Shown: one piece after another, positions 34,821 through 60,899 of the stretch
How the letters are laid out: every line of letters begins with the position of its first letter
Numbering within the stretch: the stretch's first letter is position 1
Source of the DNA: Octopus vulgaris
Lineage: Eukaryota
Assembly (NCBI GenBank): GCA_951406725.2
Contig: OX597818.1
Span: 114,886,001 to 114,950,000, forward strand
Direction of reading: 5' to 3'
DNA: 64,000 nucleotides
Notes under the pieces: generated by a model
What the model was told of the DNA's origin: nothing
Database searches by the model: none
What the model saw: only the letters and a program-made list of their open reading frames with translations
Program-made: the position numbers and the translations under genes

Positions 34821-35397
34821 TTAAAATAGTTCTAAATAAGGGGAGGTAATAAGTGATTTCTTCCGGTGTAAGGGAGATAATCGCTTAAAATTTTTTAAAT
34901 TTTTTTTTCCTTTCCCTTGGTGTGAATTTCTCTGTATCAGTATGTTGGCATGGTTAAGTCTGGGCTTGTACTTTTCAATGAAGAATGTTTCCTTGTTTAG
35001 TCTAATTTGTGTTGATGATCCGATAGCACATTGGTAAAATGGAAAGATTAAACATTGTGGTCGTAGTTGCGTTGCGCATTTCTCAATGTGCTCACTAAAA
35101 GGTATCGTTCTGTATTCTGGGAATGCAATCTGTTGTCGATGCAGTGTGCATCTACGTCTGAGTGATAGTCCCATGGATCCCACGTAGTCTTGGTGGCAGC
35201 CCGAGCATTTTATGACATAAATTATGTTTTCAGAGGCACAAGTAAAGTTAGATTTGATCTTGAATTTCTGTCCCTCTTTAAAGAGGAATTCTGATCCTTC
35301 TAGCAGGTTTGGACATGTTGCACAGTTCGATCTACCACATTTTTTTACTTTTGCATCCGTAATTTCAGAAAACAATTTTGCCTTTGTGAGAATCTTT
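34821..35397 (-). pseudogene. 5'-truncated PLE GIY-YIG endonuclease domain with Cys-rich linker
   Basis: KCGRSNCATC linker; NFTCASENIIYVIKCSGCHQDYVGS..SLRRRCTLH..FSEH..RLNKETFFIEKYKPRLN fits the GIY-YIG with CCHH motif of Penelope-like elements. The CxxxxCxxC linker suggests the Neptune type. No RT is present. Confidence 0.85.
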
Positions 35398-35824
35398 CGG
35401 GCTGCCACCAAGACTACGTGGGATCCACGGGACTATCACTCAGACGTAGATGCACACTGCATCGACAACAGATTGCATTCCCAGAATACAGAATGATACC
35501 TTTTAGTGAGCACATTGAGAAATGCGCAAAGCAACTACAACCACAATTTTTAATCTTTCCATTTTACCAATGTGCTATCGGATCATCAACACAAATTAGA
35601 CTAAACAAGGAAACATTCTTCATTGAAAAGTACAAGCCCAGACTTAACCATGCCAACATACTGATACAGAGAAATTCACACCAAGGGAAAGGAGAAAAAT
35701 TTTTTTTAATTTTAAGCGATTATCTCCCTTACACCGGAAGAAATCACTCATTACCTCCCCTTATTTAGAACTCTTTTAAACATAAACATAAAGATAACTC
35801 TGTTCAAGATAAACATAACGTCGC

Positions 35825-40827: not shown

Positions 40828-41443
40828 AATCACAATAAGGGTGAAAAAAATTGAATATTAATTAATAACATCAATTTAAAACACCAAGTGGCCTAGCGTA
40901 TAAAGACTGGGATACAGTAAAAATTATTAATACAAGTAATGAGAGAGTCCACATGTGGTCACTCTAACGCTAGATATAGATCCACGAAGGGAATCCACCA
41001 CTAAAGAATTGTTCTCAAGAATTAGTTCAACGCGCCAAGAATGTAAGCGAGCAGGACAAATGAAAAATAACGAAAAATAGATTAACTCTATACAATTGTT
41101 TCACCGTTAATAGATTGTGTAATTTTACTTACATAATCATTTTCGATCTTCAGTAGAGTATACCAAAAAAATATAATTTGCTGAGTCGAACGCCAACATT
41201 CACACGAAGCCGAACAAAGGCGAATGGCACAGCCGATTATATCTGCAGTTACGTTCAAATATCCTCATTCTCACGCGCTAAACCCGGATGTAAATACTAC
41301 CCCAGTAATTTACTGCCGGTTTGAGAACATATTAATTTATAATTAAAATCACAATAAGGGTGAAAAAATTGAATATTAATTAATAACATCAATTTAAACA
41401 CCAAGTGGCCTAGCGTATAAAAACTGGGATACAGTAAAAATTA

Positions 41444-41449
<6 letters not shown>
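40828..41449 (-). mobile_element. retrozyme-like non-coding element, about 519-bp monomer with about 105-bp terminal redundancy
   Basis: 40828-40932 is directly repeated at 41347-41449. Internal hammerhead; (TA)n on both sides; no listed ORF. Confidence 0.8.
41085..41159 (-). ncRNA. type I hammerhead ribozyme
   Basis: ACTCTA-CTGAAGA-[imperfect long stem II]-GAAA-CAATTG-TA-TAGAGT: perfect 6-bp stem I, palindromic stem III, GUA site. Confidence 0.8.
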
Positions 41450-45489: not shown

Positions 45490-47610
45490 GTGTGTGTATG
45501 CTAATACTGCTTTTTTTATGCTCAGCGACGTTCCTATCAGTGTTTGCCAGACAGCTCGTATGTGTGCGTAATACTGTGACAAATTGCTGAGAAAATCCTA
45601 CCTCTTTTTATTCAAGCAGTAGATGGCTGTTGCTACTGACCAGTTTGTAAATAATATTTACTTTCGTTATAAATAACAAAAAATATTAAAAAAGAACCAT
45701 TGGTAATATTTAACATCATCGTAAGAATAAAGTTACTTCCCTTAAAAAAATATGATGAAACTGAAAAAAATGATGAAAGTATCGATCTATGTGAGCGTAA
45801 TAGCTATATAACTGTCTACAAATAGTTTGTCTGAAATTAGTTCATCTAAAGTAAGAAAAAACATTTGGTTATATAAATATTTATCAGATAACGTTAAAGG
45901 CCCAATATCAAGTTCTGATAAAGGAATTTGGACAGATATATATATCACAAGTTTCAGCAAATATTCATATGGTTCGTTATATCATATTATGTTTGAATTC
46001 GTGTGCAATAACATATTTATTCGTCAATAAAATTTCGAGACCTAGAGCAACAAAAGAATAAATAATGAAATAAAATAGAAGAAAAAAGAGATAAAAATAA
46101 AAGAAAAAATTTTACATGTAAATGTTCGCTGTTGTACCATTACTTCATAACAATAAACGCGTCCATTTAAGTAATAACTGTTTACTTAGCATAGTGCGCC
46201 TGATAGAGAACATGATTTACTTATTAAACATAACACTACCTACGTAGTGCATGTGTGATGTTCGTTTTCTCATCATTATTACATTTCAGGAATATTGCTA
46301 TATCACATTCAATATATGTATTATATATAAAACATTATAAACATATATATGCATAGCTTACTTATTATAAAACAACAACTTAGTAATGCATAACATACAG
46401 GCAAAATTAGAGAGAGAGAGATAAAAAAAAATAAGAGTAAGTATATGCTATGAAATCTTTGAGATGAGTGCCTTAGAAACAAATAGTATTCAGATTAACA
46501 CATTATTGAATCCAGGGATGGGGCGACAATTCTAATATTACCCTATCATTGTATCAAACTGATTCTTCTGTGGCTGGATTTTTCCTTATCTTACAAGAAT
46601 ATCTTAAAAGTATATATTATACATAAATATACTTCTAAATTTGTCCCCAGGAGCACACCGAAAACACACACACACAAACCCATATATATCTCCATTGGAT
46701 CTTACTGGTGGCATCTTGTGTGCAAGTCTGACTATAGCCTGGGCCGACCAAACCTAATTTAAGATTAAACAAGCTTCTATATATGTATATATCTGTGTGT
46801 GTTTGTGTGTTGGTTTTAAAAGCTTGACAATACTGTTTTGTTTCTCCAGACGTACGGTTCCAAAAAGGACCGATAGAATAAGACTATGTGTTTCAAAGAA
46901 TAACGTCTTTCAAAACTGAGTCACATGCACATCATGCTCAAGCTCATGAAGTCCACGACGTTTCGGATGCACAACAAACTTGTAAATTTATTGAAATTAT
47001 ATATTCTGACATTATTTAATTTGCTCAAGCAAAAATGAATTCATTATTCATTTCTCCGTTACCTCTCTTACTTTTGCTCACTCTGAAATTTTACAAATAT
47101 TTGACCTGAATGCTAACTAATCTTGTTCGGCATGTATGTATCTATATGTTCATTGCTATTTGGTTTTAATTTGTCTATACATAAGTACACTATGTATTGG
47201 AGTGTATCTCCTTTCTGTTCAAAACTTGAAATAATATATGTCCACAATCACTTCTATCTATTATAAACACATGCTAGTGGTCTTATATTCGATCAACTTT
47301 TGTTTACAAAGAGCCTCTAAAACCAATTTTGTACTAAACTGGAAATGTAGCTTACAGATATTATAGATTATTTGAAACAAACAGGATAGGTATGGATGTT
47401 TATATAAGATGAAATGTATAAAGTAACACAACGTGTTGCATCGACCATATCAAGACAAACATGGCATTAAGAGAGCAAATCTCCTGTAGTTTAGATTGAC
47501 TCCACATATAATTAGTTATCCTAGTAGTAGCATAATGTGTGTGTGGCTTTAAGAATATGTGTGTCAGAGAAGAAATGTATGCAAAACTCTTGCCATATAT
47601 ATATATATAT

Positions 47611-47658
<48 letters not shown>

Positions 47659-48103
47659 TAATAATAAATATTAGGAATAACACCAACACTTACAAAAATC
47701 AGATTTGTTGGTAATTTATAGTAATATTATATTATATTAAATTATATTAAATTAGAGACAAAACCACTGAATAAACTGAAAAATTATCAACCGATGCTGG
47801 TAAGTTATTATCACAGTAACTAGCGGTTCGGAAAAGAACGTAAAATAATCCTAGGCTTACAAAGAATAAGTTCGTATTTTACCAAAGGCGGTACGTGCAA
47901 CAATATATATCGAATAAATTGTATAGAGTATATATGACAATATATATATATATATTGTTGTATGAGTGTGTAGGACGTGTCAAAGAAATTCTTTTGTTTT
48001 TTTAATAATTTTGTTACATATTAAAATAATATAACTTAATCATATGTATTGGCTTAAGTTCTTCATTGTTTGAATTTGCCTAATAGTGGTTATGTCTCTA
48101 ATT

Positions 48104-48155
<52 letters not shown>

Positions 48156-49331
48156 TAGTAATGCAATACTAGAGTATTGCTTTCCCAGTAAAGAATAGCT
48201 CAGAGGGAAAATATATACAAAGAAGTAAATATATGGCACAACGAAGTACCGATATTTACTGGAAATAGCGTAAATGTAATAATACGACGCCAATGTATAG
48301 CTTCACCGCGTATGTACTAGCAAAAATGCGTGTGCAACAAACTAGAAAAAATTGTCTTACCTCCAGGGAGAACATCTGAAAGATGAAATACCTGGAAAAG
48401 GATAATGTGGGACCTGCGCAGGTTTCAGATTTTTCAAGATATGTCTGCACCCATATACTTGATCTATCTTCATCAGCCAAACATATGCCACGACAACATT
48501 TCAGATGTTACCACATTAATGCCATTACACTCCAACTGAAACGCCGAAACGCTAACAGCATCGAGAACGGTGAAGAAGTTTCAATAAATTAGTAATGCAA
48601 TACTAGAGTATTGCTTTCCAGTAAAGAATAGCCCGTAAGGGAAAAATATACAAGAAGTAAATATATTTTTGCTAGTAATATTACTGCCGGTGAAGCTATA
48701 CATTAGCGTCGTATCATTACGTTCGCTATTTCAAGTAAATATCTTTTATTCATATATATGTGTGTGGAGGCGTGTATTTGTGTTATGTGTGTGTATGTAT
48801 ATATATATACATATGTGTGTGTGTATGTGTGTAAATACACAGTATATGTTTGGCTGATGAAGATAGATCAAGTTTATGGGTGCAGATATATCTTGAAAAA
48901 TCTGAAACCTGCGCAGGTCCCACATTATCCTTTTCTAGGTATTTCATCTTTCAGATGTTCTCCCTGGAGGTAAGACAATTTTTCTAGTTTGTTGCACACA
49001 CGCATTTTTGCTAGTACATACGCGGTGAAGCTATACATTAGCGTCGTATTATTACGTTCGCTATTTCCAGTAAATATCGGTACTTCGTTGTGCCATATAT
49101 TTACTTATATATATATATATATATATATGTTTATATATATATAGTATATATATTGTATGTGTGTTGTATTTGTGTGTGCTTTGTCTCTAATTGGACGATG
49201 CTGGTGTTTTCCCGTACTTGCTTCGGCAAAAGAGACCGATGTTGTACTGTTTACAAAAGAATTCCCGGTCGATTTCCACACGGTGCTAGCATGTCAAATG
49301 TCAAATAACTGAAAAGTGAGATATACACTAT

Positions 49332-49363
<32 letters not shown>

Positions 49364-50496
49364 ATATATATCTGATTGAGTGCAATATATACTGTGGATA
49401 TAAGTGGGTTACATCTTTGGTGTTTATGATAATAATTTTGTCTAGAGAGAGGAGATCTGAAAGAGAAATAGTATCTGTTCAGAGAATCAGTATTTCATAC
49501 TCATTGAAGATTGTGAAAAATTTCTGAATGTTGTAATACGAGAAAATTTTAACAAAGCTAAATTTTCTTGTATCTATATTCACATTGTTAAATATCATTT
49601 TATGAAATTTTTTTTAAAATTTGTTTCAGTTGTCAACATATGTTACGCACAAATGACGTATATTGTTTTCTACTGGGTAAAATGTCAAACTTTGAATAAT
49701 TTTACATTTTTCTAAAGAATTGCTTTCATTTGAAATTGTTTGCATTTTATTTTATTGTTTTAGTGAAGAAGATACCAAGTCTGGTCGCCTTTTTGTGCAG
49801 TAAGGATTTGAAAGATTTGTTTTTTGTTCGTTTGAATGTATAAATTTCAAACAATCATGAAGCAAAACATACTTACCATAACATGTATCATTAATTGAAT
49901 ATTTTTCAGAATTTCTTCTTCGATGGATCTGTGCATTATAAAACAAGATATTTGTAAAGTAACTTGTGCCCTATTGAAGACAAATTATACACGCACATTA
50001 AACACAGTTCTTCATGAATAAAAAAATATAAGATGGATATTATTATATGTAAAAAAAAAAAGAGGCTTTATATTTTCAACCACAGGAAAATAGATACTAT
50101 GAAACTTACAAAATATATATATACATATATATATATATTAACAATGGTGTGCTTTTTTTACACAAAGGCGTTTAAAATAGCTATCGTTTCAGGGATATGA
50201 TAAAGAGTGAACACACAAAGACATAGGATATCTTATTGCAATATTAAAGTCCGATGAAATTTTGTTTACAAAACGAAATAAAGTTGAATTCATAAAGGGC
50301 AAAAGCATTGTAAAGATGTTTTATTACATTGTAGTTGATATAAATTGTAAATATCAACGACATCAGCACAGAGATCTTTCTTATTAATAACAATATGTTC
50401 TTCAACTGTTCTTATTTTCATATCAACTGAAATCTTATACTAGATTATAGTATTTTTTGGTGTGTTTATTCCATAGTGTATAGTGCGCATGTCTCT

Positions 50497-55669: not shown

Positions 55670-56030
55670 TATATTGGTTTATCAGATAAATTCTTTCGTT
55701 TCTTTTGAACATTATTTGAATTGACACGAAAAATAATTTGAATTAACAGGAAAAATATTTCATTGCAGTGTTTTATGGGGTTGGAAGGTGTATTCTTTCT
55801 CAACACCATTTGCTTATTGTTTTTTGAAATTTGGATACATTTAACCTTTTCAGACATGCGAAGATGAAACGACAAGTAGCATTTTCAATATTTGTTTCCT
55901 TCCACTGTCATTCAAGTTTCCAAAGCTGTCAGAGCCACTGGAAACATTTGTGCTGTGTTCGGAGAAGATGCTTCGGATCTAGTTGCTTTATTGCTGCCAG
56001 CATTTCAAAAATTGAAGTTTATTGAAAATT
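55670..56030 (+). mobile_element. decayed mariner transposon 5' part
   Basis: Peptide SKAVRATGNICAVFGEDA resembles the mariner N-terminal HTH motif KAAEAARNICAVYGEDA. TIR-like TATTGGTTTATCAGATAAATTC lies upstream. Confidence 0.55.
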
Positions 56031-56379
56031 TTAAAATTTGGCAAATTAATGTAGTTTTCCAAACTGAATTGCTGGAGTTGTTTCAATTTCTCCAGGAAAA
56101 TGTTTTAAAAAATTATAGGTCTAAAGTTTGATCATTTTTACCCAGTCAGGAAACAGGATATGGAAGCTGTCATTTTGTGCGTAACAGCACGTGTTGACAA
56201 CTGTAAACAAGTCAAATTTTGCTCTACGCACGCATATAATCTCTCATAACTTTATTTATTTTTTGATATTTCCAGAAGAATTTTGCGAATGTGTATTCTA
56301 CACATGGGAATTCATGCAATTGTCGAATGATAAAACAAAAGAATTGCTTTGTTAAAATTTTCTAAGCAAAGTAATTAAA

Positions 56380-56710
56380 ACAAGGGCACTCAGAGAGCGC
56401 AAACCTCCGCCAAGCAACACCAACGTCTTCTCAACGATTAGCCAGAGATGATTTTTAAAATGAGAATATCTGAAATAAACTCGATTGCCCTCATAAACGA
56501 GAATACTAAAATGAACCTGACCGCTCTCAAAAACTAAGTAAAAAATAAACAGGAAAAATAATCCAGAATCCTTGTCTGGTACCGGATTGATCCCAAAATC
56601 TAATCAGTTCGTGCCAGTCACAAGGCCAAACATCTCCGAAAGTTTTATCCGAATCCATCCAGCAGTTCTTTGAGATATCTTATCCACGGACAAACAAACA
56701 CGACTGAAAT
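56380..56710 (-). mobile_element. Helentron-associated (DINE/HINE-like) non-autonomous element
   Basis: Terminal ACAAGGGCACTCAGAGAGCGCAAACCTCCGCCAAG (short hairpin plus CCTCCGCC sub-TIR-like motif) and ATCCATCCAGCAGTTCTTTGAGATATC..ACAAACAAACAC resemble this class. Confidence 0.5.
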
Positions 56711-56725
56711 CAATAAATCGAAAAG

Positions 56726-56769
56726 AAAACAAAAGAATTTCTTTGACACGCCTACACACTCATACAACA

Positions 56770-56828
<59 letters not shown>

Positions 56829-57006
56829 CATATATACTCTTACTTCTTTCAGTTATTTGACTGTGGCCATGCTGGAGCACCGCCTTTAGTCGAGAAAATC
56901 GATCCCAGGACTTATTCTTTGTAAGCCTAGGACTTATTTTATCGGTCTCTTTTGCCGAACCGCTAAGTTACGGTGATGTAAACACACCAGCATCGGTTGT
57001 CAAGCG
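56726..57006 (+). repeat. segment duplicated at 58239-58478 (includes a SINE A tail)
   Basis: Near-identical except for (TA)n length. Confidence 0.9.
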
Positions 57007-57043
57007 ATGTTAGGAGGACAAACACTGACACACAAACATACGC

Positions 57044-57075
<32 letters not shown>

Positions 57076-57121
57076 AAACACACACACACACACACAAACA
57101 TATATATATATATATATATAT

Positions 57122-57389
57122 AAAGAAGTAAATATATGGCACAACGAAGTACCGATATTTACTGGAAATAGCGAACGTAATAATACGACGCTAATGTATA
57201 GCTTCACCGCGTATGTACTAGCAAAAATGCGTGAGTGCAACAAACTAGAAAAAATTGTCTTACCTCCAGGGAGAACATCTGAAAGATGAAATACCTGCAA
57301 AAGGATAATGTGGGACCTGCGCAGGTTTCAGATTTTTCAAGATATGTCTGCACCTTAAACTTGATCTATCTTCATCAGCCAAACATATG
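57122..57389 (-). mobile_element. inverted partial copy of the 429-bp retrozyme-like unit, including the hammerhead (57311-57382)
   Basis: Reverse complement of about 57749-58017. Confidence 0.85.
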
Positions 57390-57572
57390 TGTGTATTTAC
57401 ACACACATACACACACACACACATATGTATATATATATATACATACACACACACTGGCACACACAAATACCTCCTCCACACACATATATATGAATAAAAG
57501 ATATTTACTTGAAATAGCGAACGTAATGATACGACGCTAATGTATAGCTTCACCGCGTATGTACTAGCAAAA

Positions 57573-58079
57573 ATATATTTACTTCTTTGTATATTTTTCC
57601 CTTACGGGCTATTCTTTACTGGAAAGCAATACTCTAGTATTGCATTACTAATTTATTGAAACTTCTTCACCGTTCTCGTGCTGTTAGCGTTTCGGCGTTT
57701 CAGTTGAGTGTAATGGCATTAATGTGGTAATCTGAAATGTTGTCGTGGCATATGTTTGGCTGATGAAGATAGATCAAGTTTATGGGTGCAGACATATCTT
57801 GAAAAATCTGAAACCTGCGCAGGTCCCACATTATCCTTTTCCAGGTATTTCATCTTTCAGATGTTCTCCCTGGAGGTAAGACAATTTTTTCTAGTTTGTT
57901 GCACTCACGCATTTTTGCTAGTACATACGCGGTGAAGCTATACATTAGCGTCGTATTATTACGTTCGCTATTTCCAGTAAATATCGGTACTTCGTTGTGC
58001 CATATATTTACTTCTTTGTATATTTTTCCCTCACGGGCTATTCTTTACTGGAAAGCAATACTCTAGTATTGCATTACTA

Positions 58080-58085
<6 letters not shown>
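57573..58085 (+). mobile_element. retrozyme-like element, 429-bp monomer with 84-bp terminal redundancy
   Basis: 57573-57656 is repeated at 58002-58085, then (TA)n. Internal canonical hammerhead; no coding capacity. Confidence 0.85.
57757..57828 (+). ncRNA. type I hammerhead ribozyme, canonical core
   Basis: TGG-CTGATGA-AGAT..TCAAG..CTTGA..ATCT-GAAA-CCTGCGCAGG-TC-CCA; predicted cleavage after C57825. Confidence 0.85.
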
Positions 58086-58130
<45 letters not shown>

Positions 58131-58137
<7 letters not shown>

Positions 58138-58533
58138 ATTAGAGACATAACCACTATTAGGCAAATCAAACAATGAAGAACTTAAGCCAATACATATGAT
58201 TAAGTTATATTATTTTAATATGTAACAAAATTATTAAAAAAACAAAAGAATTTCTTTGACACGCCTACACACTCATACAACAATATATATATATATATTG
58301 TCATATATACTCTTACTTCTTTCAGTTATTTGACTGTGGCGATGCTGGAGCACCGCCTTTAGTCGAGAAAATCGATCCCAGGACTTATTCTTTGTAAGCC
58401 TAGGACTTATTTTATCGGTCTCTTTTGCCGAACCGCTAAGTTACTGTGATGTAAACACACCAGCATCGGTTGTCAAGCTTAAGTTTTTCATTGTTTGATT
58501 TGCCTAATAGTGGTTTTGTCTCTAATTTAATAT
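58131..58533. repeat. 57-bp inverted repeats bracketing the duplicated segment
   Basis: 58131-58187 is the reverse complement of about 58477-58533 with few mismatches. Confidence 0.85.
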
Positions 58534-58631
58534 AATTTAATATAATATAATATTTTACTATAAAATTGGATTCAATCCTAAATCTGATTTTTCCCTGTAA
58601 GTTTGGATTTATTCCCTAATATTTATTATTA

Positions 58632-58731
<100 letters not shown>

Positions 58732-59574
58732 ATATATATATATATATGGCAAGCTGGTTTTGCATAATTTCCTTCTCTGAAAATATTCTTAAATGACAGT
58801 GGATAGCAGATTATGCTACTGACTAGGATCGAACTGGGAACGTGTCCTTGTGGAGTCAATTTCTAAACTACAGGGAGATTCATGCTCTCTTAATGCCATG
58901 TTTGTCTTGATATGGATCGATGCAACACGTTGTGTCCTACTTTATACATTTCATCTTATATAAACATTGTATATCCATCCACCTATCCTGTTTGTTTCAA
59001 ATAATCTATAATATCTGTAAAGCTACATTTCCAGTTTGAAATTACACATAAGATTGGTTTATGAGGCTCTCTTAGCTAAACAAAAGTTCGATTTCTTTTT
59101 TAGTAATATGAAAGTATACACCATTTTATGCATGTTTCTATAATAGATAAAGCATGGGCGATTAAAGTGGACATTATATTGATTTCAAGTTTTCGCACAA
59201 GGCCAGCAATTGCAAGGAGATGTTGGTTAGAGGAACTCCAATGCTCAGTTGGTACTTATGTCATCGACAGAATTAAAGGCAAAGTCGACCCCGGCGGAAT
59301 TTGAACTCGGAACATAAAGACCGACGGAATGCCGCTAAGCAGATTAGTTAGCATTTTCCCCCGGCATACAAACGTATTCTGCCCTAAATTTCAGACGTGC
59401 GGCAATGAAGTACCAAGTACTTACGTGTCAACGCCTTGAGAAATGAATAATGAATTTCATTTTGGATGTTTTGTAGTCCAACATTAAATATTATGGTTCA
59501 GAATATAATTCAATAAATCCCTTTACAAGTTTGTTGTGCTCCTTTAAACGTTTCCAGCATGTTTAGGATGGCCT

Positions 59575-59920
59575 TACTCTTTACTCTTTTACTTGTTTCA
59601 GTCATTTGACTGTGGCCATGCTGGAGCACCGCCTTTAGTTGAGCAAATCGACCCCAGGACTTATTCTTTGTAAGCCTAGTACTTATTCTATCGGTCTCTT
59701 TTTGCCGAACCGCTACGTTACGGAGACATAAACACACAAGCATCGGTTGTCAAGCAATGTTGGTTGACAAACGCAGACACACAAACACACACACGCATAT
59801 ATATGCATATATACGACCGGCTTCTTTCAGTTTCCGTTTACCAAATCCACTCATAAGGCTTTGGTCGGCCCGAGGCTATAGTTGAAGACATTTGCCCAAG
59901 ATGCCACGCAGTGGGACTGA
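59575..59920 (-). mobile_element. SINE family A, head truncated
   Basis: Near-consensus tail and middle. Confidence 0.9.
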
Positions 59921-59941
59921 CCAAGTGGACGGCCATCATCA

Positions 59942-59995
<54 letters not shown>

Positions 59996-60899
59996 CGCGC
60001 GCGCGTATCTAAATTATAGAAGTATATTTATGTATAATAAGGTACTTATAAGTACGTGCTTGCTTTGCTAAAGATAAGACTCAAAAAACTCCCAAGCCAC
60101 AGAAGAATCATTAAATTGATACAGGCATGATAGGAAAAGAAATAAGTGAATTAGAATTGTGCCTTACCTCCGCAAAGGTTGCAGGAGGAATGTCAGTTAA
60201 TCTGATATCATGACTTTGGATTTAGCGCCTAAGGCACTCGATTCTCTTCGGCCAGATTTACCAGTAGCATATTATATATGTGTATTTCTATATTTTATAT
60301 ACATTTATTAATTTTGCCTGTACGGCTTTTATGCTTGCGGTCACTAACGTTGTTCGTTTTATGAATAATAATGTTCTTTTATTCATATATATGTGTGTGG
60401 AGGAGGTATTTGTGTGTGCCAGTGTGTGTGTATGTATATATATATACATATGTGTGTGTGTGTGTGTATGTGTGTGTAAATACACACATACATAAGCAGA
60501 CATACACACATGCGCGCGAGTGCACGTCAGGCCGGTTAAAAGTGTTATTTATGACTTGTAAGCAAGAATTAAATCTAGTTCTCTAGCTTCAGGCATACGG
60601 AATGCGTAATTTAAGTAAGAGCAGTTATTATTCTCTGGCCCCTACATGGACGCGTCCCCTGCTGAGAGTTGTTATGGTTACAGTAATTGGTCAGCAACAG
60701 ACGAACATCATTACATTAAACATCTTTTTCTTTCTACTTTTCTATCTCTTTTTTTCTTTATTTTATTTCATTATTTATTCTTTTGTTGCTCGTAGGTCAT
60801 CGCCAAATTTTATTGACGAATAATCATCATAGCACACACGAATTCAAACATACATGCATGTATATACACACGTATATACACAAAATATATGCACACATG

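Follow-up and report, generated by a model that had tools for sequence, protein, structure and literature searches.

A dispersed non-coding hammerhead element family of Octopus vulgaris with Penelope-type insertion ends

Introduction

What kind of element is the 429-nt repeat with a hammerhead motif that sits in a TA run of the Octopus vulgaris genome, and how are such repeats inserted? We address this question at one locus within a 64,000-nt stretch of contig OX597818.1 (assembly GCA_951406725.2, positions 114,886,001 to 114,950,000, forward strand), hereafter called the window; coordinates refer to the window unless another locus is named. The genome comprises 2.8 Gb in 227 contigs and is rich in microsatellites.

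Animal non-LTR retrozymes are described as short units of 150–450 bp with a GC content below 50% and a type I hammerhead (PMC7229834; bioRxiv 10.64898/2026.07.22.740005), and the Mytilus repeats measure 350–390 bp (Cervera and de la Pena 2020, PMC7229834). Li, Clavereau and Pollet view retrozymes as derivatives of Penelope-like elements (PLEs); in the same preprint an 'active' retrozyme is defined by head-to-tail repeats with two complete hammerheads (bioRxiv 10.64898/2026.07.22.740005). This 2026 study argues the PLE–retrozyme link from co-occurrence and phylogeny in vertebrates, and its sample, as its text describes it, includes no mollusc (bioRxiv 10.64898/2026.07.22.740005). PLE insertions are reported to consist of partial tandems next to an inverted 5′-truncated copy, with only one of the arms bearing a tail (PMC3846280, PMC8557442), and PLEs of the Hydra clade are described with canonical hammerheads and (TA)n targets (PMC8557442). 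For Anolis Poseidon, the tail is described as the sequence between two internal reverse transcriptase (RT) start sites, both strands being nicked and extended, and a dimer of the enzyme is predicted (PMC11167929). Our search of the literature on cephalopod retrozymes found none; Repbase, Dfam and supplementary element lists lay outside that search and might include the 429-nt family.

Results

The studied copy is one arm of a composite insertion

The whole locus is a single composite insertion into (TA)n, bounded on either side by a 3′ end of the element (Table 1). Three features of the initial annotation were recovered at the sequence level: an 84-bp redundancy (57573–57656 and 58002–58085, spacing 429) with a single mismatch (T57603/C58032), a 3′ end at a TA run (58083–58134), and an antisense hammerhead copy upstream (core 57378–57314). 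The antisense copy is the second arm of the main arm's own insertion, with the two fillers at 57386–57501 and 57500–57574 inside it. The inverted arm is 98.5% identical to 57749–58023; the difference between the arms is also given as 1.1%.

Table 1 Features of the composite insertion and its target.
Feature	Window coordinates	Strand	Basis or identity
(TA)n target, left half	57100..57121	.	sequence
Inverted 5′-truncated arm, unit positions ~177 to site A (first RT start), with complete antisense hammerhead	57122..57389	-	
Filler templated by host DNA at 60375-60490, in inverted orientation	57386..57501	-	97.4% over 116 nt
75-nt inverted unit fragment, positions 339-413, at the arm-arm junction	57500..57574	-	97%
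Main arm, 1.2 units, 513 nt, with site B (second RT start) as its 3′ end	57573..58085	+	
Non-coding 429-nt unit, 38% GC	57573..58001	+	
Type I hammerhead: bulged stem I, core, long stem II, GAAA, palindromic stem III	57747..57836	+	descriptor scan, covariation
Structured domain around the RT start sites	57971..58072	+	aligned monomers
62-nt 'tail', site A (58023) to site B (58085)	58024..58085	+	clustering of arm 3′ ends
(TA)n target, right half; common to a second, unrelated insertion	58083..58134	.	

The segment had been proposed as an intact, circle-producing unit, a description that does not hold. The studied copy carries one sense and one antisense hammerhead and no head-to-tail pair of complete hammerheads. 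Because only one sense hammerhead is present, no monomer can be released from it by double cleavage. It is probably a twin product that is a dead end for monomer production.

The surroundings of the locus are themselves repetitive. The region at ~45990–50000 is a gap-rich inverted duplicate of ~56000–60850, with 282 of 2,334 positions being gaps and 83% identity overall. Its element part reaches 96–97% identity, and its junctions and filler are those of the 57 kb locus. This duplicate is probably a fold-back read artefact of the assembly rather than a second insertion; the copy at 48150–49116 was accordingly rejected as an independent insertion, given the matching junctions and filler and its position within the gap-rich duplicate. 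On the other side, a second, unrelated head-to-head insertion (58135–58634) uses the same TA run, and its right arm is ~100 nt longer than its left. Its filler (58236–58478) is a near-identical copy of a SINE-bearing stretch at 56723–57005. With the filler at 57386–57501, two adjacent twin insertions thus both carry patches from DNA 1.5–3 kb away. Elsewhere in the window, fragments of a Neptune-type GIY-YIG endonuclease lie in an inverted arrangement at 34953–35648 (tblastn E to 1e-43).

The hammerhead is conserved by compensatory change

The complete core expected from the initial reading is present in the main arm, with CTGATGA at 57760–57766, GAAA at 57810–57813 and GTC at 57823–57825; on this sequence, cleavage is predicted after C57825. 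Stem II opens with AGAT/ATCT (57767–57770/57806–57809), as had been noticed, and continues beyond a 3×3 purine loop as TCAAG/CTTGA and then TATG/CATA, the stem II region (57767–57809) measuring 43 nt. The palindromic stem III is likewise there: it reads CCTGCGCAGG and, with the flanking A and T, forms a 12-nt palindrome (57813–57824). Stem I, a bulged pairing of ATG(TT)TGG with CCACAT, was absent from the earlier description. A type I descriptor with pairing checks found four sites in the window (sense, antisense and two in the inverted duplicate) and none in 30 shuffled windows. The Rfam scan returned no hammerhead match at the gathering threshold or at E ≤ 10; the long stem II probably defeats the Rfam models.

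We recovered 99 hammerhead regions from 82 distinct loci, some of which had been found via the hammerhead itself, and the core pattern was present in 93 of the regions. Among 15 distinct subfamily representatives, 98.2% of cells were paired and both sides had changed in 6 of 15 stem pairs, with such changes in all three stems. This number was equalled in 7 of 500 shuffles, a count that is not a probability because the sequences are related, and slid controls gave 0–2 pairs. In 36 close copies selected from the 99, 98.9% of cells were paired, with both-side changes in 2 of 27 pairs; the other covariation alignment drew on 16 hand-picked hammerhead copies. Stem III varies in length between 6, 10 and 12 nt, with pairing and a mostly palindromic form kept, and the cleavage-site triplet alternates between GUC and GUA. 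Judged from these alignments, the hammerhead is genuine and under selection.

The folding model disfavours easy self-cleavage. The hammerhead fold (−13.2 kcal/mol) lies 6.4 kcal/mol above the minimum (−19.6 kcal/mol) and is not the predicted ground state, and the pair probability of stem I is at most 0.07 in five contexts. The monomer 57595–58023 is strongly self-paired (z −4.55 as a linear molecule; about −5.0 as a circle, against 60 shuffles). Sequestration of the hammerhead, as predicted here, is reported for some mussel circles (PMC7229834; bioRxiv 10.64898/2026.07.22.740005), and eight of nine Xenopus retrozyme dimers are reported not to cleave in vitro (bioRxiv 10.64898/2026.07.22.740005). 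The 12-nt palindrome is modelled as far more stable as a duplex (−23.5 kcal/mol) than as a hairpin (−1.8 kcal/mol), so a dimeric hammerhead may be possible.

The unit belongs to a dispersed family

Three short exact patterns gave 142, 101 and 1,032 matches in the genome, the last with one 20-mer, all three counts being lower bounds on pieces rather than on full copies; reversed controls gave 0. This copy-number check revealed a dispersed family, with copies on many contigs and in unrelated flanks. The nearest copies are 97–98% identical, and subfamilies at 85–89% and ~80% retain the period and the ends. The suggestion that the family is young is therefore borne out for the nearest copies and for the studied insertion, whose own arms differ by about a hundredth; it does not extend to the subfamilies, which reach ~80%. 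Before counting, 28 of 110 and 6 of 30 locus identifiers were removed as the same place or as segmental or assembly duplicates. The resulting 106 distinct loci were mostly picked by similarity to the studied copy, 24 of them being position-ordered, and 29 further loci were read separately.

Other hammerhead-like families occupy similar sites. On the minus strand at 40828–41448 lies a family with a 500-nt unit in (TA)n and a hammerhead-like core, CTGAAGA...GAAACAATTGTA, ~260 nt upstream of its own 3′ end; this core fails the strict stem II check. The two families had been called unrelated in sequence, and blastn agrees, finding just a 10-nt match (E 0.46). At L156 (890–994 and 1248–1351), another type I hammerhead family forms a twin insertion in the TA run beside a copy of the 429-nt unit.

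Insertion ends fall at two fixed sites

The 3′ ends of the arms cluster 62 nt apart, at site A (window 58023, unit position ~22) and site B (58085, unit position ~84), and in 82 loci 113 of 117 ends at these sites are followed by (TA)n. The 5′ ends vary between copies, so that overlaps range from none to 710 nt. The 84-bp stretch, annotated as a terminal redundancy, is therefore mere overlap of an arm running 1.2 units, and not a defined terminal repeat: its 3′ end is fixed and its 5′ end variable. An LTR reading was rejected on the same grounds, as the 5′ ends differ between copies and the 3′ ends fall at two fixed sites.

Head-to-head twins account for 49 of the 106 loci. Both ends fall at a site in 41 twins, and in 40 of these one arm ends at A and the other at B (the 29 separately read loci are outside this count). 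The exceptions are one twin with both arms at site A (L133) and eight twins with an arm ending elsewhere. Of the 24 position-ordered loci, five are twins, all of them A/B; of the solo copies, 18 have their end at A and one at B. The ~80% subfamily is less regular: its five two-arm loci comprise two A/B, two with an atypical end and one A/A whose arms are separated by a TA run. For 30 of 33 twins, the divergence between the two arms is below that from the median other copy (1.6% versus 4.3%), and the arms usually have subfamily variants in common.

Sites A and B fit the two RT start sites described for Anolis Poseidon, with a tail of 62 nt between them. This one-arm tail is the known Penelope 'tail', which is also seen in Neptune-type elements of this genome. 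For Anolis Poseidon in vitro, start sites are reported to be alike on both strands (PMC11167929), unlike the one-site-per-arm rule seen in 40 of 41 twins. Around the sites, an 11-bp stem (57971–57981/58044–58054) and a hairpin (58055–58072) are kept in all or nearly all of 13 aligned monomers; the changes in these stems are G-U only, and the pattern used in the search had in part constrained the 5′ strand. We infer that the structured domain is a putative recognition signal for the mobilising enzyme.

The arms constrain the template

The cleavage site is crossed by 105 of 145 arms, and just two stop within 6 nt of it. The template was therefore not a linear monomer trimmed by the hammerhead, a candidate rejected because 5′ ends are not piled at the cleavage site (2 of 145). 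More than one unit is present in 70 of the 145 arms, the longest having 2.65 units (sampling favoured long arms), and in 40 of 47 cases the repeats inside one arm resemble each other more than they resemble other loci. Such seamless arms across the cleavage site favour a circular template, which would explain seamless periodicity without long arrays; on balance, we lean towards a circle.

The same element and PLE enzyme might instead use a linear, uncleaved read-through transcript of a few multi-unit loci, with no circle, the hammerhead being kept for another step or as a passenger. Precedent exists in Anolis Poseidon, for which insertion is reported not to need hammerhead cleavage and uncleaved RNA is described as the main template in vitro (PMC11167929). 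The disfavoured hammerhead fold in our model points the same way, and loci of 1.6–2.65 units exist as potential sources. However, copying from a fixed start only shortens arrays, yet subfamilies down to ~80% keep seamless arms of more than one unit. Long tandem arrays were absent among the places listed (the first 100 for each of the three patterns), although arrays collapsed in assembly would escape such a count, and the closeness of repeats within an arm also speaks against a linear source. We regard linear copying as a contender of less than even probability.

The unit is non-coding and is not the end of a longer element

Within the main arm, no sense-strand ATG open reading frame of 40 aa is present, and the arms have no match to a PLE protein. 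No coding body, shared upstream stretch or open frame joined to an arm was found in 135 loci. PLE fragments do occur near six copies (L005, L137, L173, L177, L192 and L198), all of them outside the arms. Two tandem cores, which could release monomers, are present in 6 of the 106 loci (L012, L026, L030, L101, L104 and L149). An intron inside the unit, considered on account of a conserved GAG/GTAAG, was unsupported, as the nearby acceptor is not conserved. These observations uphold the reading of the family as non-LTR retrozyme-like, that is, a non-coding, hammerhead-bearing retroelement with a 429-nt unit.

It had been cautioned that the copies might simply be the termini of a long coding PLE, and the twin and inverted layout, the tail and the (TA)n target are indeed traits reported for PLE insertions (PMC8557442). 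If the copies were such 5′-truncated ends (pLTRs), long arms should enter the coding element; instead, arms longer than 429 nt run on into the same unit and never into an open frame. No arm runs into an open frame or a common upstream body, and none of the 135 loci is joined to a coding element; the copies are therefore not such termini. This explanation is largely refuted and we give it very little credence. A satellite or segmental repeat with a chance hammerhead match, for which the missing Rfam match and the DNA-level or assembly duplication at 48150–49116 could be cited, is refuted by covariation and end data (compensatory changes, fixed 3′ ends, dispersed copies with unrelated flanks and no descriptor match in shuffles) and has a negligible probability.

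Candidate machinery in the genome

The genome holds many elements with an RT plus, at the C terminus, a GIY-YIG endonuclease and with a CX4CX2C linker of the Neptune/Nematis type. Of 150 scored GIY-YIG matches, 16 sit in open frames of 781 aa, and every GIY-YIG element whose ends were read stops at (TA)n. Of three inspected twin insertions of Neptune type, two have a 30–40 nt extension on one arm only, and the third (L093) has equal ends. Comparing the 429-nt unit by blastn with 40 GIY-YIG loci, drawn from the 150 scored among 6,136 candidates in a sample that excludes the Hydra clade, gave no similarity. Searches for an autonomous partner by post-tail patterns, domain patterns and a diverged-subfamily query found none.

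Two Neptune-type loci deserve description. At L091 (G000:C16:20835300-20840800), a 781-aa RT-endonuclease frame follows a separate open frame of 359 aa; elements of this type are apparently a recent family, as the 16 frames of equal length suggest, and their hammerhead core looks degenerate. At L173 (1439–1468), a 5′-truncated Neptune RT fragment lies ~30 nt past the unit's 3′ end in like orientation, with a short TA run between. We read it as a separate insertion into a shared TA run, that is, co-targeting; alternatively, the fragment may have been joined to the unit by a template switch.

Presumed RNA runs are uninformative on expression

Among the sequencing runs that contain the unit, none is on record as RNA. 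Most of the unit is covered by contigs of three runs presumed to be RNA and of one further run. On the neighbouring SINE these contigs reach a much higher summed depth, and the contig coverage therefore says nothing on expression. A joint that 'goes back 426' in two presumed-RNA runs reflects only the unit period, which is present in DNA too.

Discussion

We conclude with good confidence that the locus belongs to an animal non-LTR retrozyme, a protein-free hammerhead element of 429 nt, which a PLE likely mobilises into (TA)n, probably from circular RNA. Taken by itself, PLE mobilisation of a non-coding hammerhead element is equally well founded, whereas the circular nature of the template is held with only modest preference.

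In the proposed pathway, the rare loci with two tandem hammerheads would be transcribed and cut to monomers, possibly via a stem III formed by two molecules or assisted by a protein; ligation would then turn the monomers into circles. A PLE protein would then bind the structured domain near the tail and nick the TA repeat with its GIY-YIG endonuclease. Site A would be the starting point of reverse transcription, with an additional start at site B, on the other strand, in a minority of events. Microhomology would link the 5′ ends of the two resulting cDNAs, the studied copy having gained in addition a patch from DNA 3 kb away. We put forward tentatively a more specific form of this pathway, in which a Penelope-type enzyme, acting as a dimer, would copy a single RNA circle from two fixed start sites that lie 62 nt apart, with one site for each nicked DNA strand.

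Like other animal non-LTR retrozymes, the family has a short non-coding unit of less than 50% GC with one type I hammerhead, strongly self-paired RNA and co-occurrence with PLEs. It differs in forming dispersed insertions of 1–2.65 units where the others form long tandem arrays, and in having (TA)n as its target and a precise double 3′ end of PLE type; moreover, it is known from genomic DNA, whereas the retrozymes of some animals yield abundant small circular RNAs. With endonuclease-bearing (EN+) PLEs (the Neptune/Nematis and Hydra clades, and Poseidon), it shares the partial tandem with an inverted 5′-truncated copy, the one-arm tail, the (TA)n target and, upstream of the two internal RT start sites, a canonical hammerhead. 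Unlike them, it has no RT or endonuclease gene, its tail measures 62 nt rather than 30–40, and none of the sampled coding families (40 loci) resembles it in sequence. Plant LTR retrozymes are likewise described as non-autonomous and hammerhead-bearing (PMC7229834; bioRxiv 10.64898/2026.07.22.740005), and the studied copy resembles them in being terminally redundant. The octopus hammerhead is, however, of type I and not type III, and its redundancy differs from copy to copy; a 4-bp target duplication is not discernible within (TA)n.

The 429-nt family is thus new among animal non-LTR retrozymes and has insertion ends of Penelope type; it is real and well supported but ordinary in kind, as its element class has already been published, and so have the tail and the preference for (TA)n. 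It bears on how PLEs form tails and inverted arms and on whether PLEs mobilise retrozymes, and to that question it adds insertion-level evidence from an invertebrate. With its two mapped start sites, the unit is also short and defined enough to serve as substrate in a test-tube assay. If one circle is indeed read from two sites, the family would, as a minimal substrate of 430 nt that encodes no protein, account for both the PLE tail and the inverted arms, and would be a direct sign that PLE enzymes mobilise retrozyme circles.
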